From the NCBI GenBank assembly GCA_020510985.1, contig CM035843.1, positions 157,059,922-157,123,921 on the forward strand: a DNA stretch of 64,000 nucleotides, read 5' to 3'. The notes beneath the pieces were generated by a model that made no database searches, was not told where the DNA came from, and was given only the letters and a program-made list of their open reading frames with translations. A program made the translations under genes and the position numbers. This DNA comes from Pholidichthys leucotaenia. Its lineage: Eukaryota. Shown piece after piece: positions 67 through 44,792 of this stretch; position 1 is the first letter of the stretch; each line of letters begins with the position of its first letter.

Positions 67-552
67 TTCAATTCAATTCAATTTAATTCAATTCAATTCA
101 ATTCAACTTTATTTATATAGCGCCATTTCACAACAACAGTCATCTCATAGCACTTTCAACTGTAGGGGGAACCCCCACAGTTGCAGAAAGACCCCAGCAA
201 TCAGGCGATCCCCTGTGAGCAAGCACTTGGCGACGGTGGAGAGGAAAAACTTCCTTTTAACAGGAAGAAACCTCCAGCAGAACCAGGCTCAGGGAGGGGC
301 AGTCATCTGCTGCGACTGGCTGGGGGGTGAGGGGATAGAGAAGATGAAAAGAACAGACATGTAGAGAGCAAACAACACGATGAGGACTCAATCTATGGGA
401 GAGAGCAAACAGATGTTAATGACCAGCAAAAAAAAATATTTAATTGAGAGTGAAGAAAGGAGCGAGGCCCAGTGCATTATTGGAGGTCCCCTGGCTGACT
501 AAACCTATTAGCAGCATAACTAAGGGAGGGTTCAGAAACACATGATCCCTCC
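67..552 (-). repeat. 3' UTR of LINE copy a, ending in a (CAATTCAATT)n microsatellite tail at 67..110.
   Basis: Reverse complement of 46542..47002 in copy b. The same tail motif recurs at 63592..63675. Confidence 0.8.
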
Positions 553-1584
553 CTAATTGTAGGCTATATCAAAAAGGAAGGTTTTAGCCCTATTCTTAAA
601 AACAGAGATCGAGTCTGACTCCCGAATCCAGATTGGCAGCTGGTTCCACAAGAGAGGAGCTTGATAACTGAAGGCTCTGCCTCCTATTGTACTTTTGGAG
701 ATTCTAGGTATTACAAGTAATCCTGCATTTTTGGAGCATAGTGTTCTGTTAGGATAATAAGGTAGTATCAGATCTTTTAAATAAAAAAGAGCCTGATTGT
801 TTAGAGCTTTGCAAGTAAGAGGAAGGATTCTAAACTTAATTCTAAACTCTATGGGAAGCCAATGAAGGGAGGCCAGAACCGGAGAGATATGATCTCTCTT
901 TCTAGTACCTGTTAAAACTCTTGCTGCAGCATTTTGGATCAGCTGAAGACTTTTTAAAGATGTTTTAGGACAGCCTGATAATAAAGAATTACAATAATCT
1001 AATCTCGAGCTAACAAAAGCGTGGATCAGTTTCTCAGCATCACTCTGAGATAAGATGCTCCTAATCTTGGCAATATTACGCAAATGATAGAAGGCAGTCT
1101 TAGAAACAAATTTAATATGTGAATTGAAGGACAGATCTTGATCAAAAAAAAATTCCAAGGTTCCTCACAGAGCTATTAAGAGAAAGAGTAACCACATCCA
1201 AACTGAAAGTTTGATTTGGAAAGGTATTTCTAAGGTTTTTCGGACCAACAAGAATGACTTCAGTCTTATCTGAATTTAATAGCAGGAAATTACAAGTCAT
1301 CCAAGCTTTGATTTCCTTAAGACAGGCTTCTAACTTGGCTAATTGATTACTATCATCTGGCTTCATTGACAGGTATAATTGTGTGTCATCTGCATAACAA
1401 TGAAAATGTATACAGTGCTTTCTAATAATGTTGCCTAACAGAAGCATATATAAACTAAAAAGAGCAGGGCCTAGCACAGATCCCTGTGGAACTCCATGAC
1501 TAAGCTTTGAGTTGAAAGAAAACTCATTGTTTACATGAACAAACTGGAACCTATCAGATAAAATAAGATCTAAACCACTGCAAC
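553..1584 (-). pseudogene. C-terminal RT part of LINE copy a ORF2 (YADD motif), with at least one frameshift.
   Basis: ORFs 553..1158 and 1142..1477 match copy b residues ([10 protein letters not shown] ... FLFDIAYN). Copy a has an extra T near 1545 relative to copy b. Confidence 0.8.
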
Positions 1585-2101
1585 TGTTACAACCTGAGCG
1601 CTGGGTTCTGTTCGTGCTCGGGCTAAGCTCATCTTGGTGCCGGCCTTGATAGCTGTGGGCTGTATTCTGGCCTCACCGGGCTCTTATTGTGAAGGTGCTC
1701 GGTGGGGCTTCCGCCTGTCAAGGCTGGTCAGCTGTGTGTCATTACTGCTCATTAGTGTTCGCCTTCATAAAGCGGGCACTAGCGACAGTAATGTTGCAGG
1801 AGTATGGTCAACATCTTGTCAGACTTTGTCAACATATTGTCAGATTGTCTACACTTTGTCAAACCTCGTCAAAGCATCACTAGACCTTCATGTCAGGTTC
1901 ATGCTTTTCATGTCACAGTTTAGCTCGTAGTGGCTGGGGGCAGCCCTGCGAGCCCATGTATTGATTTGTGTGTGTTTTTGCCGAGAACGGCTCACAGTCT
2001 TGTCCTGTCTCGTCTTGTATGTTAATAAACCATCATCGCAAAACTCACTGGTGGACTCTTGGCGTCTTATGGTGATCCGCGAGGATCACCGCATGACAGT
2101 A
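1585..2101 (+). repeat. 5' LTR of the non-autonomous LTR element.
   Basis: Direct repeat of 4753..5268. Confidence 0.75.
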
Positions 2102-2159
2102 TACTCCTGCCAGGACGTCCGAACGGAGACGCCACACCGAGACGTTCTTCCCTGTCTGG

Positions 2160-4079
2160 GTGTCTATTGCTGGGAGAATGCCGTCATCCAGGGGCCATGG
2201 TCGGCGCCTGAGTAGAAAGCTAGCGGAGGTTCTGGAGTATGTGGACGGTACTCTATTCACCGCTACGCTGTACGACACTCCCAGCGACATACGCTGGCAC
2301 CTGGACTGCGCTGAGGATCTTCTGGACAATCTTCCCCTCGATTGCGACGGTCACTCGGAGGTGATTATGAGGAGGGAAGAACTCGCTACACAGTGCGAGA
2401 TACTTCGTGGGCTGGAGGAGGAAGAGAGCAGGAAGCAGAGGAGGAGCCATCCTCGCTCCCCGTGTTGGAGTCCCGTTCCCGTCCCAGAGCTGGTCCAGGA
2501 GTGCGCGCCGTCTGGGGGCCGACGACTTCGGCGCAACGGCCCAGGTCACCCTCAGCAGAATCCCCGGCTGGACCTGCTGCTGGCAAAGTCCATCAGCGAA
2601 CCGCCGAGAGCGGCCCCACCTCGTCCATCCAGGGGGCCCTCTGTCGCCATCCAGCGGGGAGAAGGAGGAACAATGTCCCCTACAGCAGGAACCATCTCTG
2701 CCCTGGGAGAAAGGCAAGTGCATGATAATTTATTACATCTTGATTATAATCTGCCTTGTCTGGCTCCTGGGGGCGGAGTTCGGGGTTCGCAGCCCTCCGA
2801 ACTTCCTCCACCTGCTGTAGAGAATGTAACTAAACCTGCTGCCTCTGTGTTCCCCCCTGTCCAGCGGTCCACAACGCCAGGCCAACGTCGTCGGATGAAG
2901 AGGGGGCCTTCAGTGCTGGAAAGCCTGGATCCGGCCCTGCAGCCACATCGTGGACTGAGGAGAAAAGCGGACCGTGACCCGGAGCCTGAGCCGATGAAGA
3001 AGCGTCCCCGGGTCTCCTTGCCGGAGCGGTCCGAGCCAGTGGGTCGAGGGTCCCCTGCCCCCACGCCATACGGGTCTTCGGCGTGGACAGCAGCGCAGGA
3101 GGAACCTCAAGCTGCAGATGCCATCCTGCCAGCTGCGGAGCCCGACGCAGCTGAGTTCGAGCCTGCTGACGAGAGTTGCCGCCCTGAACCTGGATCGTCG
3201 GAGTCCTGGGTGGCAACAGAACCCAAGTGCAGGCAAGTGCTCCCTCTGGTGTCTCTGTCCCCTGTGTTGGAGCATTTTTGCCTGCCTCTCGGGGAGGCGA
3301 GTGAGGAGCAGCCGCCTGCTGCGCCCGAGCTCGTCTCGCTGGGTTATGTTGCTACCGGTGATTCTGATCCCGGTTTTCTTGTTTCTGAGCCTTGTTGCAG
3401 TGTCGCCGGCGTGGAACGAGTCGGAGTCACTGGGTTGGAGGTCCCAGGTTCGGGGGTGGAGATCGTCAGCGGAGCTGCACCGACCCAGTCGGGGTCCGTC
3501 ATGGAGGCTGCTGTGGCCCAATCGGGGTCCGACGTGGGTGCATCAGTGGCCCAATCGGGGTCCACCGCGGGTGCGGTTCTGGCCCAATCGGGGTCCCAAT
3601 GTGGGCGTACCGGAGGCCCAATCAGGGTCCGCCGCAGGTGCGGTTCTGGCCCAATCGGGGTCCGACGTGGGTGCGTCAGAGGCCCGATCGGGGTCCACCG
3701 CGGGCGCGGATCTGGCCCAATCGGAGTCCAACGTGGGTGCACCAGAGGCTCGATTTGGGTCCACCGCGGGTGCAGTTCCGGCCCAATCGGGGCCCGACGT
3801 GGGTGCAGCTGGGACTCAATCGGGGTCCAGCGGAGGTGCAGCGCCAGCGTGGTCTGCGGACAGGGGAGGAGCTGCAGACCTTTCACCGCCGAAGGGATTA
3901 CAGGCTCATCCTGGTCATCTGTTCCCTCTGAGTCACCACCCCTGTGCTTCATCGCCGGGGGCCGTGGGGGCTCCTGTTCGCTCGCCCCGGCTCTCCCGAG
4001 TTTTGTCCTCATCAGGGAGGCCGCCGCAGGCTGTTTTTCCCCGGGACTGGTGGCTGAGGGACACAGTTCGGCCGCCTGA
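2160..4079 (+). CDS. 639-aa ORF of unknown function, Pro/Arg/Gly/Ser-rich, spanning a 33-bp minisatellite. It shows no recognisable gag or pol motif.
   Basis: Longest ORF of the internal region. It has no CCHC, DTG, YxDD or DDE motifs and many out-of-frame overlapping ORFs typical of GC-rich repeats. Confidence 0.3.
   Translation: MSIAGRMPSSRGHGRRLSRKLAEVLEYVDGTLFTATLYDTPSDIRWHLDCAEDLLDNLPLDCDGHSEVIMRREELATQCEILRGLEEEESRKQRRSHPRSPCWSPVPVPELVQECAPSGGRRLRRNGPGHPQQNPRLDLLLAKSISEPPRAAPPRPSRGPSVAIQRGEGGTMSPTAGTISALGERQVHDNLLHLDYNLPCLAPGGGVRGSQPSELPPPAVENVTKPAASVFPPVQRSTTPGQRRRMKRGPSVLESLDPALQPHRGLRRKADRDPEPEPMKKRPRVSLPERSEPVGRGSPAPTPYGSSAWTAAQEEPQAADAILPAAEPDAAEFEPADESCRPEPGSSESWVATEPKCRQVLPLVSLSPVLEHFCLPLGEASEEQPPAAPELVSLGYVATGDSDPGFLVSEPCCSVAGVERVGVTGLEVPGSGVEIVSGAAPTQSGSVMEAAVAQSGSDVGASVAQSGSTAGAVLAQSGSQCGRTGGPIRVRRRCGSGPIGVRRGCVRGPIGVHRGRGSGPIGVQRGCTRGSIWVHRGCSSGPIGARRGCSWDSIGVQRRCSASVVCGQGRSCRPFTAEGITGSSWSSVPSESPPLCFIAGGRGGSCSLAPALPSFVLIREAAAGCFSPGLVAEGHSSAA
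3490..3850. repeat. Minisatellite of about 10-11 units of ~33 bp (GGCCCAATCGGGGTCCGACGTGGGTGC...).
   Basis: Visible tandem periodicity. It translates to a GPIGVRRGC-type peptide repeat in two frames. Confidence 0.75.
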
Positions 4080-4735
4080 GGAACTGTTTCGCCGGTTTGG
4101 CGCCTTGGGTCGGCCACCTGACGTGTTATGTGTGTCTTCAGGCGACCTGGTTCGACCACCGGAGGAGCGGATGTGCTGGGCGTTGGACTCTGGTGAGCCG
4201 CCTGATCATGTTCTGCCTCTTGTGACCACCCGCCGGCTGTTGGACGTGGGGAGACCACCTGAACTGTTCCTGTGGCGCTTGGTCTCCGCCGGTCAGCATA
4301 AACTGTTGGGGGGTAGTGGTTTTTCTGGGTTAATCCGTCAGTGATTGTTCTGTCTTTTTTTTTTCTTGTCCTTGCTGTTCTGTGTATTTTGTGTTTTGGT
4401 TATGTCTTGCAGTTGCCCTAGTATGTGGTTTTGTTCTACTGTTGCCTTGTTTTTATCTCCGTGTATTTTGTCTGATTTTTGAATATTTGTTTTTTTGTCA
4501 TAGTCTTGTGTTTAATATTTCTGACCCACTAGTTCTGTTTTTTTTTTGTTTCCTCCATGTGCATTTTTTGATTTTGTCTGAGTAGTTACTCTTGTCATTG
4601 TCCTGTATGTCGTTTTTCTTGTCTCTGTTTTGTCTTTGGGTTTGGTCTCTCTCCCTCCGCTCCTACCACCGGCCACCCACCCTGGGGGGTGGGGGGTGGG
4701 GGGCAGGGTGGTCCTTGGGGCGTTCTGAGCCCGCC

Positions 4736-4752
4736 CGTGGAGGGAGGGTACT
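4736..4752 (+). promoter_or_regulatory. Putative polypurine tract immediately upstream of the 3' LTR.
   Basis: GGAGGGAGGGTA abuts TGTTAC at 4753. Confidence 0.45.
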
Positions 4753-5268
4753 GTTACGACCCGAGCGCTGGGTTCTGTTTGCGCTCGGGCTAAGCTCAAC
4801 TCGCTGCCGGCCTTGATAGCTGTGGGCTGTATTCTGGCCTCACCGGGCTCTTATTGTGAAGGTGCTCGGTGGGGCTTCCGCCTGTCAAGGCTGGTCAGCT
4901 GTGTGTCATTACTGCTCGTTAGTGTTCGCCTTCATAAAGCGGGCACTAGCGACAGTAATGTTGCAGGAGTATGGTCAACATCTTGTCAGACTTTGTCAAC
5001 ATATTGTCAGATTGTCTACACTTTGTCAAACCTCGTCAAAGCATCACTAGACCTTCATGTCAGGTTCATGCTTTTCATGTCACAGTTTAGCTCGTAGTGG
5101 CTGGGGGCAGCCCTGCGAGCCCATGTATTGATTTGTGTGTGTTTTTGCCGAGAGCGGCTCACAGTCTTGTCCTGTCTCGTCTTGTATGTTAATAAACCAT
5201 CATCGCAAAACTCACTGGTGGACTCTTGGCGTCTTATGGTGATCCACGAGGATCACCGCATGACAGTA
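4753..5268 (+). repeat. 3' LTR of the non-autonomous LTR element.
   Basis: Direct repeat of 1585..2101. Confidence 0.75.
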
Positions 5269-5270
5269 AC

Positions 5271-7246
5271 AAAGTTCCATTAAGTTCAACATAGTGTTCT
5301 AATCTATCAAGTAGAATATTATGATTGATAGTATCAAAAGCTGCACTAAGGTCTAAAAGGACAAGTACAGAAACCAGTCCATTATCAGATGTGATGAGGA
5401 GGTCGTTAGTGACCTTCGCTAAGGCTGTTTCAGTACTATGATGGATTCTAAACCCAGATTGAAACTCTTCAAGTAAACCATTTCCCTGCAGGTGGTCAAA
5501 TAATTGCGTAGCAACAACTCTTTCTAAGATTTTTGAAATGAAAGGGAGATTAGAGATTGGTCTATAGTTAGCTAAAGCTCCTGGATCTAGCGTTGGCTTT
5601 TTGAGTAAGGGTTTAATTACAGCCGTTTTAAAAGCCTGCGGTACATGGCCTAAAGTTAATGAAGAATTGATTATATGAAGAATAAGGCTACCAATAAGTG
5701 GGAAGACTTCTTTAAATAACCTGGTAGGAATAGGGCCTAAAAGACAAGTTGAAGGTTTGGATGAGGAAACTATTTTGTCTAACTCACAAAGATCGATTGG
5801 AGTAAACTCATCAAGACAGACATCAGTTGAAGGAGTTGTAGTAGTTACAGTATTTAAGTTAACTGTGGGAAGAATCTGATTGATTTTATCTCTGATGGAT
5901 GAAATTTTATTATTGAAAAAGTTCATAAAGTCCTGACTAGTAAGCTCTAAGGGAATGCTAGGATTGACAGAGTCCTGACTCTTTGTCAACCTGGCTACAG
6001 TGCTGAAAAGAAACCTGGGATTATTCTTGTTCTCTTCTATTAATGCAGAATAATAACTCGTTCTAGCTTTTCTAAGAGATTTTTTATAGATTAAAAGATG
6101 ATTTCTCCAAACTAAATAGATTTCATCTAAATTAGTGGAGTGCCATTTTCTTTCTAATTGACGAGTCTTCTGTTTTAAGCTACGAGTTTCTGTGTTGAAC
6201 CAAGGAGTTAGAAATCTCTGATTAGACTTTTTCTTTTTTAAGGGGGCCACCAAGTCTAGAGTCTGATGCAGAGAAGCTGTAACACTATCCACCATGTTAT
6301 CAATTACAGAAGGAGCAAGCTGTCTATAGCTTATTTCCGTTGTGTTGACACATGGCATAGAGGAAATAATCTGCATAAATTTGGTAACAGCATCATCTGA
6401 GAGGCATCTACTGTAATAATATTTTTCTTTAGCAGCCAAATAGTCAGAAATAGTAAAATCAAAGGTTAACAGACAATGGTCTGACAGTACAGGGTTATGA
6501 GGAGACACTACAAGATTTTCTATTTCTATGCCATATGTCAGAACAAGGTCCAATGTATGGTGGAGGTAATGAGTAGAATTTCCTACTTTCTGAGAAAACC
6601 CAATCGAGTCTAATATTGAATTAAATGCCACATTAAGGCAGTCACTATCTACATCCACATGTATATTAAAGTCCCTTACTACAATTATTCTATCAGATTT
6701 CAGCACTAAATCAACTAAGAAATCAGCAAATTCGGATAAAAATTCTGAGTAGGTTGATGGGGGACGATAAACTATGGCAAATAAAATTGGGTTTAACCTA
6801 AAATTGCTAAAGTGCCCAATACTGAGGACCAGGCCCTCAAAGGAATTATAACATGTTTTTTGCTTTACATTAACTAGTAATTTGGAATGGTAAATTGTTG
6901 CTACTCCTCCTCCACGACCAGAACTTCTGGGATTTTGACAGTTTAAATAACCAGAGGGAGTTGATTCATTTAAACCAACATAATCCTCTTGCCCTAACCA
7001 AGTCTCTGTAAGGGATATTAATTCAATCTGATGATCAATTAACAGATCATGGACTAACAGAGACTTGGGAGTTAGAGACCTAATATTTAATAAACCACAT
7101 TTAATTTTTAAATTATGAGGAGGAACAGAGGCCGAATCATTCAATTTAGAGGCTTTATGTTTAATTTGAGTTTTACCAATATTTTGCTTAATCACTTTGG
7201 GATGCTTATATATTATATTTTTATTTACTTTGGAGGGAGCAGACAA
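5271..7246 (-). CDS. N-terminal part of LINE copy a ORF2: APE-type endonuclease plus RT N-terminal region.
   Basis: [17 protein letters not shown]...SLTETWL endonuclease signature; RT blocks [14 protein letters not shown]. It is colinear with 43021..45500. Confidence 0.8.
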
Positions 7247-7357
7247 TGATTCTCTGATGGGGAAGACAGGGGCTAAGTTGAGGGGTGGCGGATGAAGAGG
7301 AGCTGCAGAGAGGCGTGTAAGACTGCAACTCTGCTTCCTGGTCCCAACTCTGAGTAG

Positions 7358-8237
7358 TCAAGGTTTTGGAAATTTGGATAAAAAAGATGCCAAATTGTTA
7401 GATAAATGAGAAGCACCATCCAAAGTGGGATGAATGCTGTCTCGTCTCATAAGACCAGGTTTTCCCCAAAATGAGCTCCAATTGTCAATGTAGCCCACGT
7501 TGTTTGCAGAACACCACACAGACAGCCAACGGTTCAAGGATGACGAACGACTAAACATGTCATCACTGGTCAGATTGGGGAGGGGCCCAGAGAATACTAC
7601 AGTGGCAGACATCGTTTTTGCAAAGTCACACACCGATTCTACATTAAGTTTCATGACTTCCGACTGCCGGAGACGGATGTCATTAATGCCAGCGTGAATA
7701 ACAATTGTGGAGTATTTACAGTTACTTTTAGCCAGCATTTTCAAATTTGACTTGATGTCGCCTGCTCTGGCCCCAGGAATGCATTTGAACTATGGCCGCT
7801 GGAGTCTCTAGGTTCACGTTTCTAACTACAAAGTCACCAATGATCAGAGTTTTTTCCTCAGCGGGTGTGTCGCTGAGCAGGGAAAAACGATTAGAAACGT
7901 GAACAGGTTGGTGGTGTACTGGGGCATTGCGACTAGGCTTCCTTCTCACCGTCACCCACCCAGTCTCCTCGCTGCTGAGGAGAGCCGGAGGACCGCTAAG
8001 GGGGTTAGCTATGCTAGCTAGCTCCGCTGCAGCTAAGGGGCGTCCGTCGAGATTAACTGGCGCCGACGGTGTTTCAATACAGCGGAGTCGGGATTCCAAA
8101 TCAGACAACCTCGCCTCGAGCGCCTCAAAAAGACATTTATTACATTTACCGTTATCACTAAAAGAGGCAGAGGTGTAGCTAAACATCTGACAGAGAGAGC
8201 ACACCAGAGGAGGAGAGGAAGGACAGCTAGTAGCCAT
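7358..8237 (-). pseudogene. LINE copy a ORF1 encoding an SGNH/GDSL-esterase-like domain, with one frameshift.
   Basis: IIGDxVV (GDS block), HAGINDI (GxND block) and DSIH (DxxH block). It matches the copy b ORF at 41920..42798. Confidence 0.65.
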
Positions 8238-8376
8238 CGCTAGTGGCTAACCCAAAAGCTCAGGAGAGTGAGAAGAGCAAACCACACAGACAGACAGCAA
8301 AACAGGAAGTGACGATACGTTACCGCAAGGAAGTGATGATCAATCCAATCCACCAAGCGGAATCCTTGGTGGAAAA

Positions 8377-9029
8377 CCTACAAGTACCTAGGTGTTCATT
8401 TGAATAATAAACTAGACTGGTCACACAATACCGACGCACTCTACAAGAAGGGGCAGCGCAGGCTGTTCCCACTGAGGAAGCTCAGGTCTTTTGGTGTACA
8501 AGGGGTGCTCTTGAAGACCTTCTACGATTCGGTGGTGGTATCAGCCATCACTTTTGGAGTGGTCTGCTGGGGCAGTGGCATCACAGCAGCATAGGAAGAA
8601 ACTGAACAAACTGATCAAGAAAGCTAGCTCTGTCCTGGGGCAACGCCTTGACTCAGTGAAGGAGATAGGCGAGAGAAGGATGGTGGCTAAGCTGTCATCT
8701 CTGCTGGAGTCGGAGTCCCACCCTATGCAGGACATACTGAACGCACTGAGGAGCTCATTTAACAGTAGGCTACATCATCCTAGGTGCATGACCGAGAGGT
8801 TTTGCAGGTCCTTCCTACCTACGGCTGTCAGACTTTATAACCTACGCAGGGCTGCTCGCAGAGATAGCAAAAAAACGAGACAACCTAATAATATTGAATG
8901 CAAAAGATGCAACAGACTTACACAAAATGGTCCCCTCCAGTATACAACTAGGAATATAATAGGAATATCATTCGCTACGGAGGGTGACAATATGTATGGG
9001 TACATATTCATACTATGTGGGGTAACTAA
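8377..9029 (+). mobile_element. Family-4 L2-like LINE: RT C-terminal region and proximal 3' UTR.
   Basis: ORFs 8400..8594 and 8554..9117 match the minus-strand ORF 51408..52058 (KLDWSHNTDALYKKGQRRLF...). Confidence 0.7.
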
Positions 9030-10948: not shown

Positions 10949-11172
10949 GGGCTAGTGGAAAACAGGCTTAAATAGACGGTTATGCTGTTTATTCCATCTA
11001 GCTACAATGCTCCGCACTGTGTATATATATTTATATATTTATGTGTACATATGTATATTCACTGCTCTTATTTTCTTATCTTCTAAATTATTACTCTGAG
11101 TGTTGCTATCCCTGTGCTGTTGCAATCCTGGAATTTCCCCATTGTGGGACTAATAAAGGCTTATCTTATATT
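10949..11172 (+). mobile_element. Distal 3' UTR of the family-4 L2-like LINE with a (CTTAT)n tail.
   Basis: Matches the reverse complement of 51183..51400. The tail is CTTATCTTAT. Confidence 0.65.
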
Positions 11173-11179
11173 TTCTTCA

Positions 11180-11700: not shown

Positions 11701-12140
11701 TACACAGTGCAGGAGCACTGCAGCTAGATGGTATCAACAGCATTACAGTTAGTTAAACTACCCAGCAGAATATAAATATGGACTCAGACAGTATATTTCA
11801 CATTTGAATGAACAGTGTTGTATTTGTTGTACAAATTTGTACTGAATTTATATTTATACATTTAGTTATATTTACAGGCTACATATTGTGACATTGTGAG
11901 GGTTCACACAAGAAAGAAGAGATGACTGTGGCGAACAGGCTTTATTTATACACACACTCAACACAGAACAGAGGGGAGGTCATTCACACAGACCCCTGTC
12001 TCACTTATGGTGACACAAACACATGATCAATCACTGCTGAATTGGACGCATGCGCACGCAGCGACCGGCAGCGGGTGAAAAAAGTTTGACGTCTGTGTCT
12101 CTGTTTTCATGCACTTTAATGTGTTTTAACAGAATTCTCT

Positions 12141-17720: not shown

Positions 17721-18765
17721 TCATTCACCGTGTGAAGACGTTCTTTCAAACAAAACAAATAATCCAACCCCGGTTTGCCCTCCACCTCTGGCTCTGGGGG
17801 AAGGCGGGGCGGGGGGCAACACCAAATCCACCGGTGTGCGCAGCTCGCATCCAAACATCAGCACCGCAGGAGTGCACCGGGTGGATTCCTGTGCTGCCGT
17901 CTGGTACTCCCACAGAACAAAGGGCAGATGCAGGTCCCAGTCTCGCTGTCGCTGGTCCACTAGGACAGCGAGCTGGGTGGTAAGGGTCCGGTTGAACCGT
18001 TCGACCAGGCCATTGCTCTGTGGATGCAGTGGGGTGGTCCGGGTCTTCCCGATGCCCAGCCGCCTGCAGACCGCCCCAAAGACCTCTCCCTCAAAGTTCC
18101 ATCCCTGATCACTGTGCAGCTCCTCCGGTGCGCCAAACCGACAAAACATCTCATCCACCAGTTTTGATGCTGTGGTGGCGGCGCTCTGATCAGGGACCAC
18201 ATATGCCTCTGGCCATTTGGTGAAGTAATCCATTGTGACCAGCACGTAGTGGTTCCCCCAGTCCGTGGTCGGGAAAGGGCCCAGAATGTCCACTCCTACC
18301 CGCTCCATCAGTGCTCCCACCCGGTACTGCTGCAAGGGGGTGTGAGACTGCTGAGTCGGCCCTTTCTGAACTGTGCAGGTGTCGCAGCGATGGACATGGA
18401 GCTCTACGTCCTGGTGACATCCGGGCCAGTAGAACCGGGCCTGAAGATGCTGCATAGTCTTCGTCACCCCGAAGTGGCCTTCCCCCACTGCCCCGTGGAC
18501 CAGCTGGAGTACGTTGGGCCGGAGCAGCCAGGGAACCAGCAGCTGCCAGACGTGACGCTGCCCAGCTGGAGTCTGCCATTGCCGATACACAACACCCTCG
18601 TGACAGCGGAGATTGGCCCACTGGGAGTGTAGGGCCTTGGTCTCTGGGTCCAGGGCAGACACAGCCTCCCAGGCGGGCTGCTGACCCGCGTCCTGCCAAA
18701 CCCGGGAAATGACCGGATCTCTGTCCTGCTTACTCTGCAGCTGCTGTGCGCCGAGGGCCTCTGTG
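17721..18765 (-). CDS. G1 integrase (HHCC zinc finger plus DDE core).
   Basis: HFGVTKTMQHL...CDTCTVQK; DILGPFP...TDQGWNFEG. The frame continues upstream to 18765. Confidence 0.85.
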
Positions 18766-19907
18766 ATGTCATCGCTATTTATTTATTTAGCGAATGCAAA
18801 GTCCTCAAGCCAAGCAGTTGCCGCCTGGTTTGCTGTATGGAGAGAGTGTAATCCTCCTTCCAGTCTTTGGAGCGGGCAAGCCTCTATGATGTGTTCCATT
18901 GTTTGCTCCTCTCCACATGCGCACAGTGGGCAAGGGCTACTGCCCCATCTGTGAAGGCTGGCCAAGCAGGGGCCATGTCCAGTCCTGAAGCGACTGAGTG
19001 TAGACCACTGTCTCCTTGGGAGGTTGGTGCCTGGGACCTATTGGTTGGGGTTTGTCACCAGGTATTTGTTTGGGACCTCCTTGGTCTCCCATTCCTCTTG
19101 CCAAGCTGTCTGGATGGCGAAGTCAGCTGGGGGAAGGTTTTTCCAAATCGGCTGTCTGGATGGAAGTCAGGCAGTGGGTGGGGTGTAGATATCTGCATAG
19201 ATTGGTAAGTGAGGAGAATCTTTGGCTTTTTGAAGCATCCTTTGAGTTAGTGCTGCTCGCCGGATGTGTGGGGGGGCTATGTTTGACAGTACAGGGAGCC
19301 AGGGGAGTGGTGTTGAGCGGATTGTCCCAGTTATGGTTCTCATGGTTGTGTTGAGCTGGGTGTCTACGTGGTGTGTGTAGGATGACCTGGACCAGACAGG
19401 GGCACAATATTCTGCTACAGAGTATGAAAGGGCCAGTGCTGAGGTGCGCAGGGTGGAGGCTGCCGCCCCCCATTTTGCACCAGCGAGCTTACAGAGCAGG
19501 TTGTTTCGTGCCTTCACCTTAGCAGCTGTCCCCTTTAAATGTTCCTTGAAGGATAGGGTCCTGTCAAGGGTCACTCCAAGGTAGGTTGGATTCGAGGCAT
19601 GCTTAAGCTTAAGTCCGCTCAGGTGGATGTTTAGTTCTCTGGCAGCTTTTACATTGTGGAGATGGAATACACTGGAGACGGTTTTTGCTGGGCTTGGTTT
19701 TAGGTGCCAGGTTTTGCAGAACTGGTCCAGTTTGGCAAGATCTTCCATGAGCACCCGTTCCAGTGGCTCAAAGTCTGGTGCTTGGACTGCCAAACAGATG
19801 TCATCGCTGGGGAGAGCTGACTGATTATCCGAGGAGGAGCTGTGCGCCGCTGTGTTATTCCTGCTCACAGCGGTCCGTCAAGCAGCAGCCTGTGGGACGG
19901 CTTGGTC
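18766..19907 (-). mobile_element. 5'-truncated Jockey/I-group non-LTR retrotransposon fragment (RT C-terminus, CCHC-like tail motif, (TAAA)n tail), inserted between the RNase H and integrase of G1.
   Basis: ORF 19167..19868 (YLGVTLDRTLSFKEHL ... SNIAPPHIRR). ORF 18783..18965 (CPLCACGEEQTMEHIIEACPL). A TAAATAAATAAATAGC tail lies at 18766..18785. Confidence 0.55.
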
Positions 19908-20609
19908 TCAATCCTCTGCCCGCTGGCAGTGCCGACAGTCCTCCACAGCACAGGGATGCCGAGACAGTGCGTCAGCATTGACATAGAGGCGGTCTGCCCG
20001 ATGTACGATCAGAAAATCACAATCTTGAAGTGCCTCCAGCCATCTCGCCAACTGTCCATCCGGCTCTTTAAAGTTCAGCAGCCAGGTCAGGGAAGCATGA
20101 TCCGTCATGAGCTGGAACCTCCCCCCGTTCACATACGGGCAAAAATGGCAAAGCCCCTGGATGACAGGCAACAGCTGTCTGCGAGTAACACAATAATTCC
20201 TTTCAACTCTGCTGAGAGTGCGGCTGAAAAAAGCAACTGCCTGCTCTCCGTGTTCTCCCTCCTGGGATAACACCGCCCCGATGCCCTGGTTGCTGGCGTC
20301 CGTGTCCATGATGAAAGGGTGGTTCGGGTCAGGATACTGCAAGATGGAGGCTCCGATGAGCACTGAGCGAAGCCGGGAAAAAGCAGCAGCACATCTCTCA
20401 CTCCACTGAAATGCACGGCCCTTCTGTGACAGCTGATGCAGCGGGCTGGCGATGGTGGCGAAGTCTTTCACAAATCTCCTATAATAGGAGGCCAATCCAA
20501 GAAAACTCCATAGCCCTCCCACATCCCGCGGCACTGGCCAGTTTTTCACCTTTGCCACTTTCTCTGGATTGGTGGCGACTCCCGCTGCGCTGACGATGTG
20601 GCCCAGGAA
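19908..20609 (-). CDS. G1 RT C-terminal region and RNase H.
   Basis: FLGHIVS, DTDASNQGIGAVL, TDHASLTWL and ADALSR motifs. Confidence 0.8.
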   Translation of the reverse strand, partial: FLGHIVSAAGVATNPEKVAKVKNWPVPRDVGGLWSFLGLASYYRRFVKDFATIASPLHQLSQKGRAFQWSERCAAAFSRLRSVLIGASILQYPDPNHPFIMDTDASNQGIGAVLSQEGEHGEQAVAFFSRTLSRVERNYCVTRRQLLPVIQGLCHFCPYVNGGRFQLMTDHASLTWLLNFKEPDGQLARWLEALQDCDFLIVHRADRLYVNADALSRHPCAVEDCRHCQRAED

Positions 20610-21621
20610 TAGGGATGTGATTTTTCCGCTAATTCGCGGAATTCCGCTTTTTTTGTCTTCCAAAAATTTTCAGACCAGATGGCGGCGCATGCACAACGCG
20701 AGGCTCAGCGTCTCTTCAGATTTTGTGGATTAGCAGCAATATTTCTGCTCATTTCGGGTCTGTTTGTTCAGAACAGCTTCACTTTTACATCCTACACCCG
20801 AACAAAATAACGACCTTTTTATCAGCAACCTACATTTCATCCCTGAGCTCTGGAGAACACCCGACGCTAGGTAAGCTACCCGGCCGACCGGAAGTGCTCG
20901 CAGGCGGCATAGAGACCGTAAACAAAGGAGGGGGAAGCGCGGAGGGCTAAGAGCTAAGCTAAAGCTAACACCGCACCGGCTTTCTCTACCCAGCATTTTC
21001 CTCGCTAATGTACGGTCAGTGGCGAACAGAATGGATGAGCTGTTCGGATCACCAACAATAAGAAACTTATGAACTGCAATATCATGATTTTCACCGAAAC
21101 ATGGCTACATAGTGAAGTACTTGACGGTGCTGTCGAGCTGGCCGGACGGCACACTCTCCGGGCAGACGGAGCAGCTGATGACTCCGGAAAGACGTGGGGG
21201 ACTGTGCATTTATATTAACAAGGCTTGGTGCACGAACTCTGTCACTGTTGGGAGACACTGCTCAGCTAACCTGAAGTTTCTCATGGTTAAATGTAGACCT
21301 TTCTAGCTGCCACAGGAGTTCACTTTTCACTTTTCTTCATCTTGCCTGCTGAAGATGTTTTGGACTTTATTTAAAAAATATTTTTAACGCCACACATGTG
21401 ATGGATAATGCTTGTTGGAATATTTTTTAGGAATGCTATCTTCTTGGAACATAAGTCAATATTATACAGTAATAAGTGACATTCAGCTGTCTGTTTTATG
21501 TCATTTAAGCACAGTTCTGGTACTTAAAAATCATAAAAACCCAGAAGCTTCGGGGGGCTTTGCCCCCAGACCCCCCTGCTAAATTTTCAGATAATTTCCC
21601 CAACCCCAAATCACATCCCTA
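20610..21621. mobile_element. TIR-bounded insertion with perfect 14-bp TIRs (TAGGGATGTGATTT) and a 6-bp TSD (CAGGAA). Its interior contains a 5' fragment of an L2-like LINE.
   Basis: TAGGGATGTGATTT at 20610..20623 and its reverse complement AAATCACATCCCTA at 21608..21621. CAGGAA at 20604..20609 and 21622..21627. The G1 RT frame (TTFL|GHIVS) is restored once the insert and one TSD copy are removed. Confidence 0.55.
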
Positions 21622-24047: not shown

Positions 24048-24246
24048 TGTGACGTTGTGAGGGTTCACACAAGAAAGGAGAGATGACTGTGGCAAACAGG
24101 CTTTATTTATACACACACACTCAACACAGAACGGAGGGGAGGTCATTCACACAGACCCCCGTCTCACTTATGGTGACAAAAACACAAGATCAATCACTGC
24201 CCTACTGGTCTTATAACACTGCTGTGTCATTATAACTGCGTTATAA
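24048..24246 (-). repeat. G1 5' LTR (reads TGTATCAT...GTCACA in element orientation).
   Basis: Identical in order to the split 3' LTR at 11887..12037 plus 17105..17172. The gag N-terminal coding region begins immediately inside it. Confidence 0.7.
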
Positions 24247-24476
24247 TGATGTTGTAGAAGTTGGGTTAATCATCTCAGACTGGATGCAGAGGGTAAACAG
24301 AGAAGGACAATAGGTATTGAGATGTGAGAAGGGCGGTTGATATAAAAGGAGAGACCCTGGTGTATTGAGATATGCTTTTTCTGTGTATGACTGATGTGAG
24401 AGTGAATAAAGTCATCTGCTGCATAAATCTGCCTCCGTTATTTGCACTCTCCACACTGGTGACCTCTTGACAAATT

Positions 24477-25223
24477 ATGGAACACGAGGCAAGAACCCCG
24501 GAGTCGGCCCGGACGGGAAGCCCCAGCAATGCGTACACTGTTTCAGTCAAATTACCGGACTTTTGGCTGCACGACCCACGGTCTTGGTTCCACCACACCG
24601 AGGCTCAGTTCACCCTCCGGAGAATAACCGCAGACGACACCAGATATTACTATGTGGTCGCAGTGCTGGACGCTCGCATGTCTCAGCAAGTAGCGAGCCT
24701 GCTCCAACAGCCTCCAGCCCACAACAAATACGGGGCTCTTAAGGCCGCGCTGACCCGGCGCTACACGCTCTTGGACTGTGAGAGAGCAGAGAGGCTCCTT
24801 AGGCGCTCCGAGTTAGGAGATGGGTCGGGGGTCGAACTGATGGAGAAGCTGTTGGCATTGATGGGCACGGACGACGGGCATTTTCTGTTTGCCCACCTTT
24901 TTCTCCGGAACCTCCCAACAGAGGCAAGAGTGGTCCTTGCCAATTCGATGTTGCTGGCCGTGCATGACTACCGGGCACTAGCCCAGGAGGCAGATCGGAT
25001 CATCCTCACCACCAGAGCCCTCACAGTGAATGCGGCAGCATCGGAACCCAGCGAGACGACCAGCGGAGGCGAGGAGCCGGCGACGGTAGCAGCAGCAGGA
25101 GCCAGGAAGCACCAGAGAGACATGCTCTGCTTCTACCACCGCCGCTTTGGAGAGGACGCACGCAGATGCGTGCCACCGTGCCAATTCAAGCATTCAGGAA
25201 ACGCCAAGGCCGGCAGTCAGTAG
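24477..25223 (+). CDS. Element A gag-like protein.
   Basis: LPDFWLHDPRSWFHHTEAQF N-terminal motif shared with A2 gag (LLDFWQNNRRSWFNAVEAQF). C-terminal Cys/His cluster CFYHRRFGEDARRCVPPC. Confidence 0.6.
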   Translation: MEHEARTPESARTGSPSNAYTVSVKLPDFWLHDPRSWFHHTEAQFTLRRITADDTRYYYVVAVLDARMSQQVASLLQQPPAHNKYGALKAALTRRYTLLDCERAERLLRRSELGDGSGVELMEKLLALMGTDDGHFLFAHLFLRNLPTEARVVLANSMLLAVHDYRALAQEADRIILTTRALTVNAAASEPSETTSGGEEPATVAAAGARKHQRDMLCFYHRRFGEDARRCVPPCQFKHSGNAKAGSQ

Positions 25224-25753
25224 CAGTTGCGACCGCCGGTGAAGAGAACAAGCTGCTCTACGTGACGGACTCGCGCTCGGGGAGATGGTTCCTCGTAGAC
25301 ACCGGCTTCCAAAAGAGCCTCATCCTGCCGTCCTATGCCGACCGGCTAGCAGGAGCTAGCGGCCCCCAGCTGGTAGCCGTAAACGGCTCGGGCATTAAGA
25401 CTTTTGGTCGGAGAACACTGATTTTATCCCTACACGGCTGTATGTACGAGTGGACTTTTGTCATAGCGGCATTGAGTTTCCCAATCCTGGGAGCTGATTT
25501 TCTGTGTGCACACGGGTTGCTAGTTGATGTTGCTAACAGACGCTTGGTTAATGCAATGTCTTTTGATTCTCTCCCCTGTACAGCTCGAAGGGCTGGGCCA
25601 ATAACACAAGCCAACGTCACAGCTCCAGGCGGTAAGTTCGACACACTGCTCACTCAGTTCCCAGCACTCTTGGTCCCAACGTTTTCAGCGGCCAGCACTA
25701 AACACGGAGTGGAACACTTTATCACCACCACTGGGCCACCCGTTTTCGCATGA
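25166..25753 (+). CDS. Element A aspartic protease.
   Basis: FLVDTGFQKSLI. Confidence 0.7.
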   Translation: MRATVPIQAFRKRQGRQSVAVATAGEENKLLYVTDSRSGRWFLVDTGFQKSLILPSYADRLAGASGPQLVAVNGSGIKTFGRRTLILSLHGCMYEWTFVIAALSFPILGADFLCAHGLLVDVANRRLVNAMSFDSLPCTARRAGPITQANVTAPGGKFDTLLTQFPALLVPTFSAASTKHGVEHFITTTGPPVFA

Positions 25754-25762
25754 CCTCGGCAC

Positions 25763-26203
25763 GTGGACGCAGCTAAACTGGCCATAGCGTGCAAGGAGTT
25801 TGCCAACTTGGAAAGGTTGGGCATCATCAGGCGCTCAAACAGCCCATGGGCATCCTCGCTACACATGGTCCCTAAGGCCGAGAGATCATGGCGACCGTGC
25901 AGAGATTTCCGCAGGTTGAATAACACCACAGTACACGACTGCTACTCGATTCCCATATTCAGGATTTTTCTGTTCACCTCGCCGGAGCACGCATTTTTTC
26001 TAAAATAGACCAGGTCCGCGGTTACCACCAGGTCCCAGTGCGCACGGAGGACATACCCAAAACAGTGGTAATAACTCCGTTTGGCTTGTTTGAGTTTTTA
26101 CGCATGCCCTTCGGATTAAAAGGCACGGCACAGACATTCCAGCGCATGATGGATGCGGTGTTGCATGTTGTTGTGTTGCCGTTTGTGTTTGTCTACCTGG
26201 ATG
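25763..26203 (+). pseudogene. Element A RT N-terminal region, truncated by an L2 fragment insertion.
   Basis: VVITPFGLFEFLRMPFGLKGTAQTFQRMMD ... YLD. YLDDILV is interrupted after YLD. Confidence 0.7.
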
Positions 26204-26673
26204 TCTACCAGGACCCGGAGGCGTGCTGGCCGGATCATAGCCGATCCCTCACACCCTGGTCACGTACTGTTTGCCCCCCTCCCCTCTGGTAGAAGACTTC
26301 GGTCCATCCAGACTAAAACCTCCCGTCACATGAACAGCTTCTTCCCCTCTGCCATCAGACTGCTGAACACTAAGTGACTTATTGACTCTCGTGCACTATG
26401 TACAGCAGCTCAACCAGACTCATGTCAATCATCACTGTTTTCTTCCTGCATTACCGACTGCACTATATAGTTCTCCACAGTATCTGCTCCTCGCTAATAT
26501 ATTTTAACTGCTGACCAGTATCACTTACTCTTATTCTACACTTTATTGCATGTATAGTTTATTTCTTTTATCTTATCATGTTTAATGTTGCAGCATTGCA
26601 CCGAGACAAATTCCTAGTTTGTGTACTACATGAACAATGGCAATAAACCTGATTCTGATTCTGATTCTGATTC
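26204..26673 (+). mobile_element. 3' terminal fragment of an L2-like LINE (family 3) with a (GATTCT)n tail and a TSD of about GATG.
   Basis: ORF 26153..26377 ends ...[10 protein letters not shown], identical to the C-terminus of the minus-strand ORF 34183..35547. The 3' UTR matches the reverse complement of 33896..34182. Confidence 0.8.
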
Positions 26674-26680
26674 TGATGAT

Positions 26681-27634
26681 ATCCTGGTGGCCAGTGCATC
26701 CGAGGACGAGCACGTAACCCACCTCAGGATGGTTTTCCGGAGGTTGGAGGAGCACGGGTTAATAATCAACTCAGCGAAATGTCAGTTTGGCGTGACGGGG
26801 ATTGACTTTTTGGGGCACCGCGTCTCACCGGAGGGAGCGATACCCTTGCCCGACAAGGTGCGCATCGTGGTGAATTTTCCCCGACCTCAGACGGTCAGGG
26901 CGCTGCAAGAGTTTTTGGGGATGGTTGACTTTTATAACCAGTTCTTCCCCCACGGAGCTCAGCTTATGCAGTCATTGTACACCGCGCTCAAGAAACGGAA
27001 ACCGGCGGACAGAGTCAAATGGACTCCGGAGCGGGAGCAGGCGTTCTCTGAGGTTAAAACAGCCCTGGCAAACGCCACACTGTTGGCGCACCCAGACCCA
27101 GCGGCCCGGATAGCACTCACTACCAATGCCTCGGACGTGGCCATAGGGGCCGTCGTGGAGCAACGCATTGCCGGTTCTTGGCAGCCGCTCGCTTTTTTCA
27201 GCAGGGCTTTGCACGACAGTGAGCGTAAATACAGCACGTTCGACAGAGAGTTGCTGGCTCTCCATCTGGCCATACACTACTTCCAGTTCTGGCTGGATGG
27301 GTGCAGCTTCACCGCGTTCGTGGACCACAAGCCGCTAACGTTTGCGATGGCCAAGGTTTCGGAACCATGGTCGGGCCGGCAGCAGAGACAGCTGGCCACG
27401 ATCTCGGAGTTTACGACCGATATTCAGCATGTGTCAGGTAAACTGAATGTGGTGGCAGACTACCTCTCGCGCAGTAGTGGCCCCGGTCTGCGTGGGGATA
27501 GATTATACAGCCATGGCCGCAGAGCAGTTTGGCGATGCGGACGTGTGCGCGCTCCAGTCTGGACCAACAGGGTTAAGGCTGGAGAGCAGAGTACTGCAAG
27601 ACGGCAGCCCCCCCCCCCCCCCCCCAATCTGTGA
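26681..27634 (+). CDS. Element A RT C-terminal region plus RNase H.
   Basis: ILVASASEDEH, KCQFGVTGIDFLGHRVS, TNASDVAIGAVV and VDHKPLTF motifs. Confidence 0.75.
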   Translation: MLVASASEDEHVTHLRMVFRRLEEHGLIINSAKCQFGVTGIDFLGHRVSPEGAIPLPDKVRIVVNFPRPQTVRALQEFLGMVDFYNQFFPHGAQLMQSLYTALKKRKPADRVKWTPEREQAFSEVKTALANATLLAHPDPAARIALTTNASDVAIGAVVEQRIAGSWQPLAFFSRALHDSERKYSTFDRELLALHLAIHYFQFWLDGCSFTAFVDHKPLTFAMAKVSEPWSGRQQRQLATISEFTTDIQHVSGKLNVVADYLSRSSGPGLRGDRLYSHGRRAVWRCGRVRAPVWTNRVKAGEQSTARRQPPPPPPNL

Positions 27635-27782
27635 CGTCTCCACAGAACGCCCGCACCCGGTGGTCCCAGTTGCTTGGCGCCGCTGTGTGTTTGAGTCAGT
27701 TCACGCTCTGGCGCACCCAGGAGAGCGCGCGTCAGTTAAAATGGTGGGAGCGAAGTTCGTATAGCCAGGCCTGCGCAAACAA

Positions 27783-28631
27783 GTGAAAGAGTGGGCTGCA
27801 GCCTGCGTAGCGTGCCAACGAGCCAAAGTGCACAGACACACAAAGGCTCCTTTGGAGCCGTTTCGCATACTGGCTAAGAGGTTCGACCATGTTCACGTGG
27901 ACCTCGTGGGCCCCCTCCCGCCATCACAGGGGTGCATGCACCTTCTGACAGTGGTGGACCGCACCACACACTGGCCAGAAGCAGTCCCGCTGGCGGCAAC
28001 CACATCTGCGGACGTGGCACGCGCTTTTTTGACGACATGGGCGGCACGTTTTGGCATCCCGTCGGACATCACATCCGATAGGGGCCCACAGTTTGTTTCC
28101 GACCTCTGGTCCGCGATGGCCCGTAGCCTGGGTGTTGCAATTCATCGCACAACCGCGTACAACCCACAGGCCAATGGGTTATGCAAGTGTTTTCATAGGT
28201 CACTGAAAGCAGCGCTCAGGGCTTCGCTGACGGATGCAAATTGGGTAGACCGGTTGTCGTGGGTTTTATTGAGGTTGCGTTCCGCACCAAAAGAGTATTT
28301 GGAGGCTTCCCCGGCGGAGCTTGTTTTTTGTCAGCCACTGCGGCTCCCCGGGGAATTTTTGTCAGATAATACCGCGCCGGACAACTGTCCGTCTCAGCAT
28401 TCGCAGCATAGCGCAAACACAGACACGCTGCTGGGCCTGGCCCACCACTGTTTTCCACGCGCTTTTGTGCCAAAAACTTTGAAGAACGTGGCGTTCGTGT
28501 TTGTCAGGCACGATGCCCACCGCCCCCCATTGCGCCCACCCTACGATGGGCCGTTCAGAGTGCTGGAAACAGGGGACAAACAGCCGCGGAGGCGGAAAAC
28601 CCCCATTACAGCAGATACAGGAGGAGACTGA
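27783..28631 (+). CDS. Element A integrase core and C-terminal region.
   Basis: [19 protein letters not shown] and AYNPQANGLCKCFHRSLK. The HHCC region lies in the preceding frame-shifted ORF 27447..27764. Confidence 0.75.
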   Translation: MKEWAAACVACQRAKVHRHTKAPLEPFRILAKRFDHVHVDLVGPLPPSQGCMHLLTVVDRTTHWPEAVPLAATTSADVARAFLTTWAARFGIPSDITSDRGPQFVSDLWSAMARSLGVAIHRTTAYNPQANGLCKCFHRSLKAALRASLTDANWVDRLSWVLLRLRSAPKEYLEASPAELVFCQPLRLPGEFLSDNTAPDNCPSQHSQHSANTDTLLGLAHHCFPRAFVPKTLKNVAFVFVRHDAHRPPLRPPYDGPFRVLETGDKQPRRRKTPITADTGGD

Positions 28632-42798: not shown

Positions 42799-43020
42799 CT
42801 ACTCAGAGTTGGGACCAGGAAGCAGAGTCGCAGTCTTACACGCCTCTCTGCAGCTCCTCTTCATCCGCCACCCCTCAACTTAGCCCCTGTCTTCCCCATC
42901 AGAGAATCGTTGTCTGCTCCCTCCAAAGTAAATAAAAATATAATGCATAAGCATCCCAAAGTGATAAAGCAAAATATTGGTAAAACTCAAATTAAACATA
43001 AAGCCTCTAAATTGAATTAA

Positions 43021-44506: not shown

Positions 44507-44792
44507 CTCTGCATCAGACTCTAGACATGGTGGCCCCCTTAAAAAAGAAAAAGTCTAATCAGACATTTCTAACTCCTTGGTTCAACACAGAAACTCGTAG
44601 CTTAAAACAGAAGACTCGTCAATTAGAAAGAAAATGGCACTCCACTAATTTAGATGAAATCTATTTAGCTTGGAGAAATCATCTTTTAATTTATAAAAAA
44701 AATCTCTTAGAAAAGCTAGAACGAGTTATTACTCTGCATTAATAGAAGAGAACAAGAATAATCCCAGGTTTCTTTTCAGTACTGTAGCCAGG

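Follow-up and report, generated by a model that had tools for sequence, protein, structure and literature searches.

An LTR element without gag or pol in Pholidichthys leucotaenia carries Tf1/sushi-like cis signals and a conserved domain-less protein

We analyzed a 64,000-nucleotide stretch of the Pholidichthys leucotaenia genome (NCBI GenBank assembly GCA_020510985.1, contig CM035843.1, positions 157,059,922 to 157,123,921 of the forward strand), hereafter the window. Positions 1585-5265 are occupied by a 3,681-bp element that is bounded by long terminal repeats (LTRs) and lies antisense inside a long interspersed nuclear element (LINE). This is a mobile LTR element that was inserted precisely and lacks gag and pol; its long open reading frame (ORF) belongs to a conserved, multicopy family and is frameshifted in this copy. 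The account that we favor, and consider rather probable, is that of a non-autonomous LTR retrotransposon with Tf1/sushi-like cis signals, which probably primes its own reverse transcription and would be mobilized in trans. The features of the element, its host LINE and a comparator chromovirus are collected in Table 1.

Table 1. Features of the element and of the sequences compared with it. Positions are those of the window; hyphens separate the parts of a junction or hairpin.
Feature	Position	Strand	Description and basis
5' LTR	1585-2098	+	514 bp, TGTTACA...CATGACA; LTR-LTR alignment; ends fit Sushi-clade integrase motifs
3' LTR	4752-5265	+	514 bp; LTR-LTR alignment
Left target-site duplication	1580-1584	+	GCAAC; compared with empty site in LINE copy 2
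Right target-site duplication	5266-5270	+	GTAAC; one transition from GCAAC
Host LINE copy 1	92-8352	-	Esterase ORF1, APE-RT ORF2; broken at 1584/5271; Pfam and self-BLAST against copy 2
Paralogous empty site in LINE copy 2	45505-45520	-	Alignment of both junctions to copy 2
TATA-like box	1766-1772	+	CATAAAG; putative core promoter; motif scan
Putative self-primer	1796-1805	+	GCAGGAGTAT; LTR positions 212-221; presumed transcript 5' end and start of R
21-bp tandem repeat in LTR, 2.8 copies	1807-1861	+	TTGTCA-rich; Tandem Repeats Finder; 3' LTR counterpart 4974-5028
AATAAA polyadenylation signal	2024-2029	+	70 nt from LTR end; sequence
U5 hairpin	2071-2090	+	GGTGATCC-GCGA-GGATCACC, 8-bp stem; sequence and fold
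GT and primer-binding site	2099-2110	+	Primer-binding site ATACTCCTGC at 2101-2110; complementary to 1796-1805
639-aa ORF as first read	2160-4079	+	Starts at 2160 (GTG) or 2178 (ATG); last ~160 aa are an out-of-frame reading of the repeat array
Family ORF part A, frame 0	2178-3596	+	Three-helix N-terminal domain, KRPR motif, conserved central block, first AQSGS repeats; translation, alignment to P0001-P0011, AlphaFold2
Coding minisatellite	3484-3842	+	33 bp (11 codons), AQSGS[DT][VA]GAxx, 66-bp higher-order units; Tandem Repeats Finder and unit listing
Frameshift	3595-3597	+	Extra C in TCCC; one 34-nt repeat unit; repeat spacing and unit listing
Family ORF part B, frame +1	3598-4344	+	Remaining repeats, C-terminal WW...GRPPE/GRPPD repeats; stop TGA 4342-4344
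T-rich/GT-rich 3' untranslated tract	4345-4660 (approx.)	+	Sequence; AT skew -0.49
Polypurine tract	4739-4748	+	GGAGGGAGGG, then TAC, then 3' LTR (3-nt gap); sequence
Comparator chromovirus 5' LTR end	52541-52560	-	CATGTCA-GT-ACAACTCCGCCAG
Polypurine tract/U3 junction			Studied element CGTGGAGGGAGGGTAC-TGTTACGACC; chromovirus CGTTGGGGGGGAGTAC-TGTCATGGCC
U5/primer-binding site junction			Studied element CATGACA-GT-ATACTCCTGCCAG; chromovirus CATGTCA-GT-ACAACTCCGCCAG

The original prediction described two 517-bp direct repeats at this site. Alignment of 1583/1585-2101 with 4750/4752-5268 is gapless over 519 nt and has 10 mismatches (98.07% identity), among them the variant pair CATCTTGGTG/CAACTCGCTG that the prediction had quoted; the repeats themselves therefore stand, whereas the canonical LTRs are 514 bp long. 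Repeat identity overshoots these LTRs by 2-3 nt on each side, into target or internal bases (ACTGTTAC to GACAGTA), and TG...CA termini with short inverted repeats are present once the LTRs are set to 1585-2098 and 4752-5265. Two other choices of integrated ends were rejected: ACTGT...ACAGT, which results in no target-site duplication (TSD), and TGTTAC...GACAGTA, which results in a TSD of 2 bp. Retrovirus-like linear DNA carries two extra terminal nucleotides that integrase removes before integration. The extra AC shared before the LTRs and the GT shared after them are the 2 nt expected on such DNA before trimming, and linear DNA with these bases would end in the perfect inverted repeat ACTGT...ACAGT.

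Over their canonical 514 nt, the two LTRs are separated by a Kimura two-parameter distance of 0.0198. Eight of the 10 differences are transitions and seven lie at CpG sites, and the 2% divergence comes mostly from CpG decay. Seven of the 10 are bunched in the first 53 nt (1585-1640 against 4752-4807; binomial p≈1e-5). CpG density accounts for this bunching in part, with five of the seven CpG changes falling in the first seven of 26 CpGs (hypergeometric p≈0.006), and the cluster could be the result of local hypermutation or of a short conversion tract.

The host LINE was likewise recognized correctly in the original prediction, which placed the insertion in ORF2. ORF1 of LINE copy 1 contains a GDSL/SGNH esterase domain at 7358-7744 (Pfam), ORF2 (5234-7246) carries the APE endonuclease and the N-terminal part of RVT_1 (profile positions 3-93), and the C-terminal part of RVT_1 (profile positions 125-200) lies at 1142-1477. 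Because the two halves of RVT_1 are on opposite sides of the element, the insertion splits the reverse transcriptase (RT) domain. The best protein matches to ORF2 and ORF1 come from various percomorph fishes at 65-68% identity, and a (CAATT)8.6 microsatellite at 64-106, the 3' end of this LINE copy, is probably its microsatellite-type tail.

A second LINE copy on the plus strand (41814-47006) is 96-98% identical to the first and runs unbroken across the insertion point, thereby providing a paralogous empty site. This site reads ...CTAAACCACTGCAAC/CACTGCAAC-GAAGTTC, with the longer right side GAAGTTCTATT. Relative to the empty site, AAC is the perfectly duplicated part, and the original prediction had regarded a 3-bp AAC duplication as atypical. 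A 5-bp TSD, GCAAC/GTAAC, is the simpler description and needs one C>T change in the right copy; GTAAC indeed departs by C>T from both the left copy and the empty site, and by our own calculation the chance of at least four of five matching positions is 0.016. We prefer a 5-bp TSD flanking canonical TG...CA LTRs, as read at this single locus. Together, the uninterrupted LINE copy and the duplicated target bases indicate precise insertion and not duplication. With the LTRs, the polypurine tract (PPT) and the absence of gag and pol, they bear out the original prediction of a mobile, non-autonomous LTR element rather than a segmental duplication.

Between the LTRs, the original prediction had noted a PPT at the 3' LTR, no gag or pol motifs, about 10 units of a 33-bp repeat with a T-rich tract behind it, and a Pro/Arg/Gly-rich ORF of 639 aa. 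The PPT that we found ends 3 nt short of the 3' LTR. Apart from the ORF, the interior lacks coding capacity, and ORF translation and Pfam revealed no gag, protease, RT or integrase. Tandem Repeats Finder returned 10.8 copies of a 33-bp period, and a 66-bp unit present 4.8 times scored better. The ORF called at 2160-4079 also exists, but it is a frameshifted remnant of a longer one, and its Arg/Gly-rich tail is out of frame. Three-frame translation showed that the AQSGS peptide repeat exits frame 0 near 3597 and resumes in frame +1, continuing to the stop at 4342-4344; the frame-corrected product (2178-3596 plus 3598-4344) is ~721 aa long. The ORF as called is already far longer than chance would produce: not one of 2000 Markov simulations gave an open frame of 473 codons or more. 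This copy is nevertheless dead, since its protein is cut short by the +1 frameshift within the array.

A word-indexed protein search with the ORF returned three P. leucotaenia 'uncharacterized proteins' at 47-51% identity, and a profile search of 1.84 billion representative proteins returned ten family members, all from P. leucotaenia and on several chromosome-scale sequences. At least 10 P. leucotaenia gene models, KAM9306928.1 and KAM9328833.1 among them, thus belong to the ORF family, at 25-53% identity, and the ORF is conserved between copies. The remaining profile matches, one of them to a fungal protein, are all confined to the repeat region (profile positions ~420-517); we read them as low-complexity matches. 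The homologues carry the same peptide repeats. They align colinearly with the corrected frame, and this extends to the C-terminal WW...GRPPE/GRPPD repeats. The corrected tail matches the homologue P0002 with an E value of 8e-40, whereas the tail as first read matches only P0010 (E 1.8e-9). Since only the corrected frame matches homologues, the Arg/Gly-rich part of the 639-aa ORF is out-of-frame junk.

Several of the homologous gene models have peculiarities of their own. Residues 231-303 of P0010 have the G.HRRC... pattern that the out-of-frame tail shows in the window; we infer that P0010 reads its own repeat array in that alternative frame, and frameshifts inside the minisatellite seem to be recurrent in the family. 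P0001 begins (MPS...) at a point colinear with the window ATG at 2178, the one that immediately follows the leader. P0002 ends in a C-terminal tail (CFCGSLCCFWVWCFF...) that looks like the translation of a similar T-rich tract, and in the P0011 model the conserved block is fused to an unrelated N-terminal region.

The most conserved residues of the family are R276 and P277, in a KKRPRVS motif, and C194, in C..PGG.V.GSQ. The KKRPRVS motif, with its invariant KRPR, looks like a nuclear localization signal. AlphaFold2, which was given a shallow alignment of 11 sequences, produced a three-helix bundle with helices in residues 4-89. The predicted local distance difference test (pLDDT) score exceeded 90 over residues 10-89, with block means of 93-97 over residues 11-80 and below 50 for nearly all the rest, and the N-terminal domain modelled by itself adopted the same three-helix fold. 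The ~630 residues that follow the bundle, about 87% of the protein, are predicted to be disordered. The ORF has no Pfam match, and the profile search gave no PDB match. Foldseek comparison of the confident N-terminal domain with PDB and viral structures returned generic three-helix bundles only (E > 0.1), and there was no sign of a capsid fold, zinc knuckle or enzyme in the ORF by Pfam, PDB profile, AlphaFold2 or Foldseek.

We then considered how the element is replicated. The TSD length, the primer pairing and the LTR features described here were all read from a single DNA copy. The late AATAAA signal implies a long R and a short U5. Neither TGG nor a tRNA-type primer-binding site (PBS) was found within about 50 nt after the 5' LTR, where the sequence reads GTATACTCCTGCCAGGACG, or CA-GT-ATACTCCTGCCAGG, and the window contains no tRNA gene. 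The PBS at 2101-2110 is an exact 10-nt complement of 1796-1805 in the LTR. Complementarity as good as this was obtained with 21 of 5000 shuffled LTRs (p≈0.004) and with two of 523 interior 20-mers, and a test of the primer:PBS duplex energy gave p≈0.02. The primer segment begins 30 nt after the start of the TATA-like box, the same spacing as in a chromovirus located elsewhere in the window. When RNA 1796-2125 was folded, the primer:PBS helix closed the whole R-U5 region in both the minimum-free-energy and the centroid structures, and its probability was 0.71-0.97, with any 3' extension, for RNA starting at 1790-1796. The U5 hairpin sits 10 nt upstream of the PBS, and the sole LTR-LTR difference within it (at 2079) falls in the loop. 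Because the PBS is complementary to the element's own LTR at the expected 5' end of the transcript, reverse transcription is probably self-primed, as in Tf1.

Some further features of this region deserve mention. The 21-bp repeat in the LTR, which follows the putative transcription start, contains TTGTCA five or six times and might be a regulatory module. G-runs at 4683-4712 (GGGGGGTGGGGGGTGGGGGGCAGGGTGG), just upstream of the PPT, could form a G-quadruplex. The ATG at 2093 opens a 40-codon upstream ORF in a frame that differs from that of the main ORF, and it is the equivalent of the gag ATG of the chromovirus, which lies inside the LTR-terminal CATGTCA. An Rfam scan of 1400-5500 yielded only sub-threshold noise.

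The chromovirus in the window served as the comparator. It is near-complete and occupies 41314-53195 of the minus strand, with LTRs at 52555-53195 and at 41314-41786 plus 47003-47176; the 3' LTR is split by LINE copy 2, and gag is interrupted by a LINE fragment at 51191-52057. Its gag region contains Retrotrans_gag, Ty3_capsid and a CCHC knuckle, its pol region contains RNase H, integrase, SH3_Tf2-1 and a chromodomain, and its TSD is AAAAA. The junction layout, CA-GT-PBS at one end and PPT-TAC-TGT at the other, is common to both elements, and 20 of 26 positions are equal at the PPT/U3 junctions. The chromovirus LTR has TATTTAT at position 60, followed 30 nt on by CGGAGTCGT, which pairs with the PBS sequence AC(A)ACTCCG except at one position that resembles a decayed CpG. 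The two PBS regions share ACTCC-GCCAG and differ by substitutions and an indel over 12-18 nt. Within the helix, the differences between the two elements occur in both arms. The AATAAA signal of the chromovirus is also late, at position 583 of 641 in the LTR.

Beyond these junctions, the LTR termini can be compared with published motifs. The integrase motifs of the Sushi chromovirus clade are TGTYANR and CNTNACA (Benachenhou et al., PMC3601003 Table 3), and TGTTACA and CATGACA fit both, which is weak evidence because the motifs are short. Sushi LTRs are also described as having an early AT-rich box and an AATAAA near the 3' end (PMC3601003). The element itself lacks gag, protease, RT and integrase, so a helper would have to supply them in trans. 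Since the att sites and the PPT/U3 and U5/PBS junctions are like those of the window chromovirus and the Sushi-clade motifs are matched, the most likely helper is a Tf1/sushi-type chromovirus. The comparator represents the type of such a helper and not the actual partner, given that its similarity to the element is confined to the junctions, and no autonomous partner that shares the element's LTR lies within the window.

The ORF protein and the gag of the window chromovirus have two short motifs in common. C..PGGGVRGSQ (2766-2792) matches the gag end (50458-50500, minus strand) at eight of nine residues with a single-comparison E value of 0.046, and EPEPM occurs in both proteins, with the order of the motifs reversed. 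We judged these likenesses, which are not colinear, to be insufficient for homology; they could be a trace of gag ancestry or due to chance.

Several results weigh against the interpretation as a self-priming element of the Tf1/sushi type. The perfectly duplicated part of the TSD is only 3 bp long, and the transcription start is placed from one weak TATA-like motif. For RNA starting at 1770-1780, the fold no longer contains the primer:PBS helix. The comparator pairs imperfectly, with one mismatch in 9 nt, and its pairing is not significant when taken alone (p 0.26, or 0.08 once the CpG is restored), and comparison of the element's LTRs and interior with the chromovirus revealed no similarity beyond the short junctions. 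Self-comparison and tblastn detected no further element copy, solo LTR or ORF copy within the window, and no second DNA copy emerged from protein-pattern and DNA-pattern scans of a metagenome collection or from one viral-contig scan.

The explanation that competes best with self-priming, though we think it doubtful, is that the same element is primed by a cellular RNA, either a tRNA fragment or another small RNA, and that the complementarity between PBS and LTR is coincidental. That complementarity is indeed only 10 nt long with a duplex-energy p of about 0.02, the pairing in the comparator is not significant, and the ACTCC-GCCAG common to both PBS regions could reflect a shared external primer. 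However, TGG is absent from the LTR border and its vicinity, and the substitutions and indel that separate the two PBS would not be allowed by a shared tRNA primer. In addition, p was about 0.004 in the exact-match test, and the partner segment is found at the position expected from the TATA-like box.

We consider it improbable that the element is a non-autonomous endogenous retrovirus like BHIKHARI, with a single ORF that is a highly diverged Gag and with a retroviral partner. The plan is that of zebrafish Bik-1, which also has LTRs, one long ORF (617 aa in Bik-1), an N-terminal helical domain and no pol or env (PMC12067270), and the LTR motifs TGT...ACA, TATA and AATAAA are retroviral as well. 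Nevertheless, the AlphaFold2 model has no capsid-like domain and turns into low-confidence coil after residue ~90, no Pfam gag, PDB sequence or fold match was obtained, a tRNA PBS is lacking, and the junctions are like those of the window chromovirus. Capture of a host gene fragment between the LTRs, which the original prediction had entertained, is more improbable still. A repeat-containing, disordered host protein would explain why no domain typical of transposable elements (TEs) is present and why P0011 joins the conserved block to an unrelated N-terminal region. However, all family members returned by the profile search are multicopy models from a single species, with no series of single-copy orthologues across fishes, even though fishes are well sampled in that database, as judged from the abundance of teleost LINE proteins, and the start of P0001 is colinear with the window ATG that stands right behind the leader. 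Finally, the idea that a local segmental duplication produced two direct repeats by chance, for which only the single copy in the window speaks, is essentially refuted by the precise empty site with its duplicated target bases, the full set of LTR cis signals and the spread of the protein family over several chromosome-scale sequences.

The surroundings of the element are equally rich in retroelements. Two related Ty3/gypsy elements, E2 (24250-28889, plus strand) and its counterpart at 57007-62137 (minus strand), are 74-79% identical and encode a DUF7041 gag-like ORF, RT, RNase H and integrase; E2 has an ordinary TGG PBS, TGGTGACC. A pair of LTRs at 11887-12037 and 24048-24200, 12 kb apart, surrounds a minus-strand gypsy pol (17721-20663; integrase and RNase H), and its PBS-like sequence GTTGTCAGGAGTGGG is one that we take to be tRNA-Leu-like. 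The LINE-like insert at 51191-52057, in the gag of the chromovirus, has 90-91% identical counterparts at 8367-9029 and 10969-11177. All 64 kb of the window seem to be made up of nested retroelements; we detected no host gene there.

On the favored account of a self-priming element mobilized in trans, transcription would begin at about 1796, and the RNA would be polyadenylated after the AATAAA equivalent to 2024 in the 3' LTR. The transcript would be packaged and reverse transcribed by proteins of a sushi-type chromovirus. Its 5' end would fold back on the PBS through the 1796-1805/2101-2110 helix, and an RNase H cut would free a short RNA that primes minus-strand synthesis, with plus-strand priming at the PPT. 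Integrase would then trim AC and GT and integrate the product with a 5-bp TSD. As for the ORF product, our best guess is a non-enzymatic accessory protein or Gag-substitute that acts on the element's own ribonucleoprotein, perhaps in nuclear import via KRPR. More tentatively, and in our view with low probability, the family could be a new class of retrotransposon-borne non-Gag protein that is maintained under selection. Such a protein, with its three-helix domain, KRPR motif and disordered, expandable AQSGS and GRPPE repeats, might enable an element that lacks gag to commandeer chromovirus particles or the nuclear import route, acting for instance as a scaffold or as a condensate-forming RNA chaperone, or it might have a host-directed 'addiction' role like that of BHIKHARI Gag.

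These findings have a practical side. The ORF family escapes domain-based TE filters and is called 'uncharacterized protein', as has already happened to at least 10 P. leucotaenia gene models. If our account is correct, the element would be a vertebrate example of a non-autonomous element that parasitizes self-priming chromoviruses of the Tf1/sushi type. It would also provide a conserved, domain-less TE protein with a testable role, which is timely because Gag-only ORFs encoded by fish TEs have recently been shown to matter in development. The element class and the priming mechanism are both already known, and nothing here is surprising in kind: the element belongs to an ordinary class, and what is mildly interesting about it is its probable self-priming and its conserved domain-less repeat protein.

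The original prediction had likened the element to LARD or TRIM elements. TRIMs (terminal-repeat retrotransposons in miniature) are under about 1 kb with LTRs of 100-250 bp, and LARDs (large retrotransposon derivatives) measure several kb and have kb-sized LTRs and a non-coding interior. The element resembles both in being LTR-bounded, devoid of gag-pol and, on our account, mobilized in trans, but its 3.68-kb length, 514-bp LTRs and conserved ORF of ~721 codons do not fit either class, and we abandoned this assignment. Chicken ENS-1/ERNI and the wtf genes of S. pombe provide other cases of non-standard ORFs tied to retroelement LTRs (PMC12067270, PMC7175516). The LTRs on either side of the wtf genes are specifically those of Tf1/Tf2; these genes encode membrane proteins, act as meiotic drivers and are reported to show no sign of mobility (PMC12067270, PMC7175516). 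In contrast to the studied ORF, ERNI is a Gag, and neither ERNI nor wtf has any sequence or structural likeness to it.

The non-autonomous endogenous lokiretroviruses BHIKHARI of zebrafish (Bik-1/Bik-2; PMC12067270) are closer in plan, as they too are fish LTR elements of a few kb that depend on a partner and have one ORF of ~600-700 codons with no pol or env; for a long time, homology was not recognised for the Bik-1 ORF either (PMC12067270). However, the fold of the Bik ORF is that of a retroviral Gag, comprising a coiled coil, a capsid (CA) domain and a Gly-rich tail, whereas the studied ORF shows no CA fold, and the cis signals of the studied element point to a chromovirus and not to a retrovirus.

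The closest likeness is to the Tf1/sushi group (Tf1, Tf2, Tj1 and pufferfish sushi-ichi), although it extends to cis signals alone, because gag, protease, RT, integrase and chromodomain are missing from the studied element. In Tf1, it is the 11 nt at the 5' end of the RNA that anneal to the PBS, after which an RNase H cut releases the primer (PMC7175516), and self-priming has been proposed for the whole Tf1/sushi group, from fungi to vertebrates (PMC4600332, PMC6317226). Self-priming is established in Tf1, whereas we infer it for the studied element, in which the pairing covers 10 nt and the paired segments are about 300 nt apart across a long R-U5. Tf1 also needs a U5-IR-like stem-loop, to go by the title of Lin and Levin 1998 as cited in PMC4600332. 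The studied element shares with this group the LTR terminal motifs, the late AATAAA and long R, and, if the mismatch is read correctly, a 5-bp TSD. As in this group, too, a hairpin immediately precedes the PBS, which complements the element's own putative 5' region and not a tRNA.

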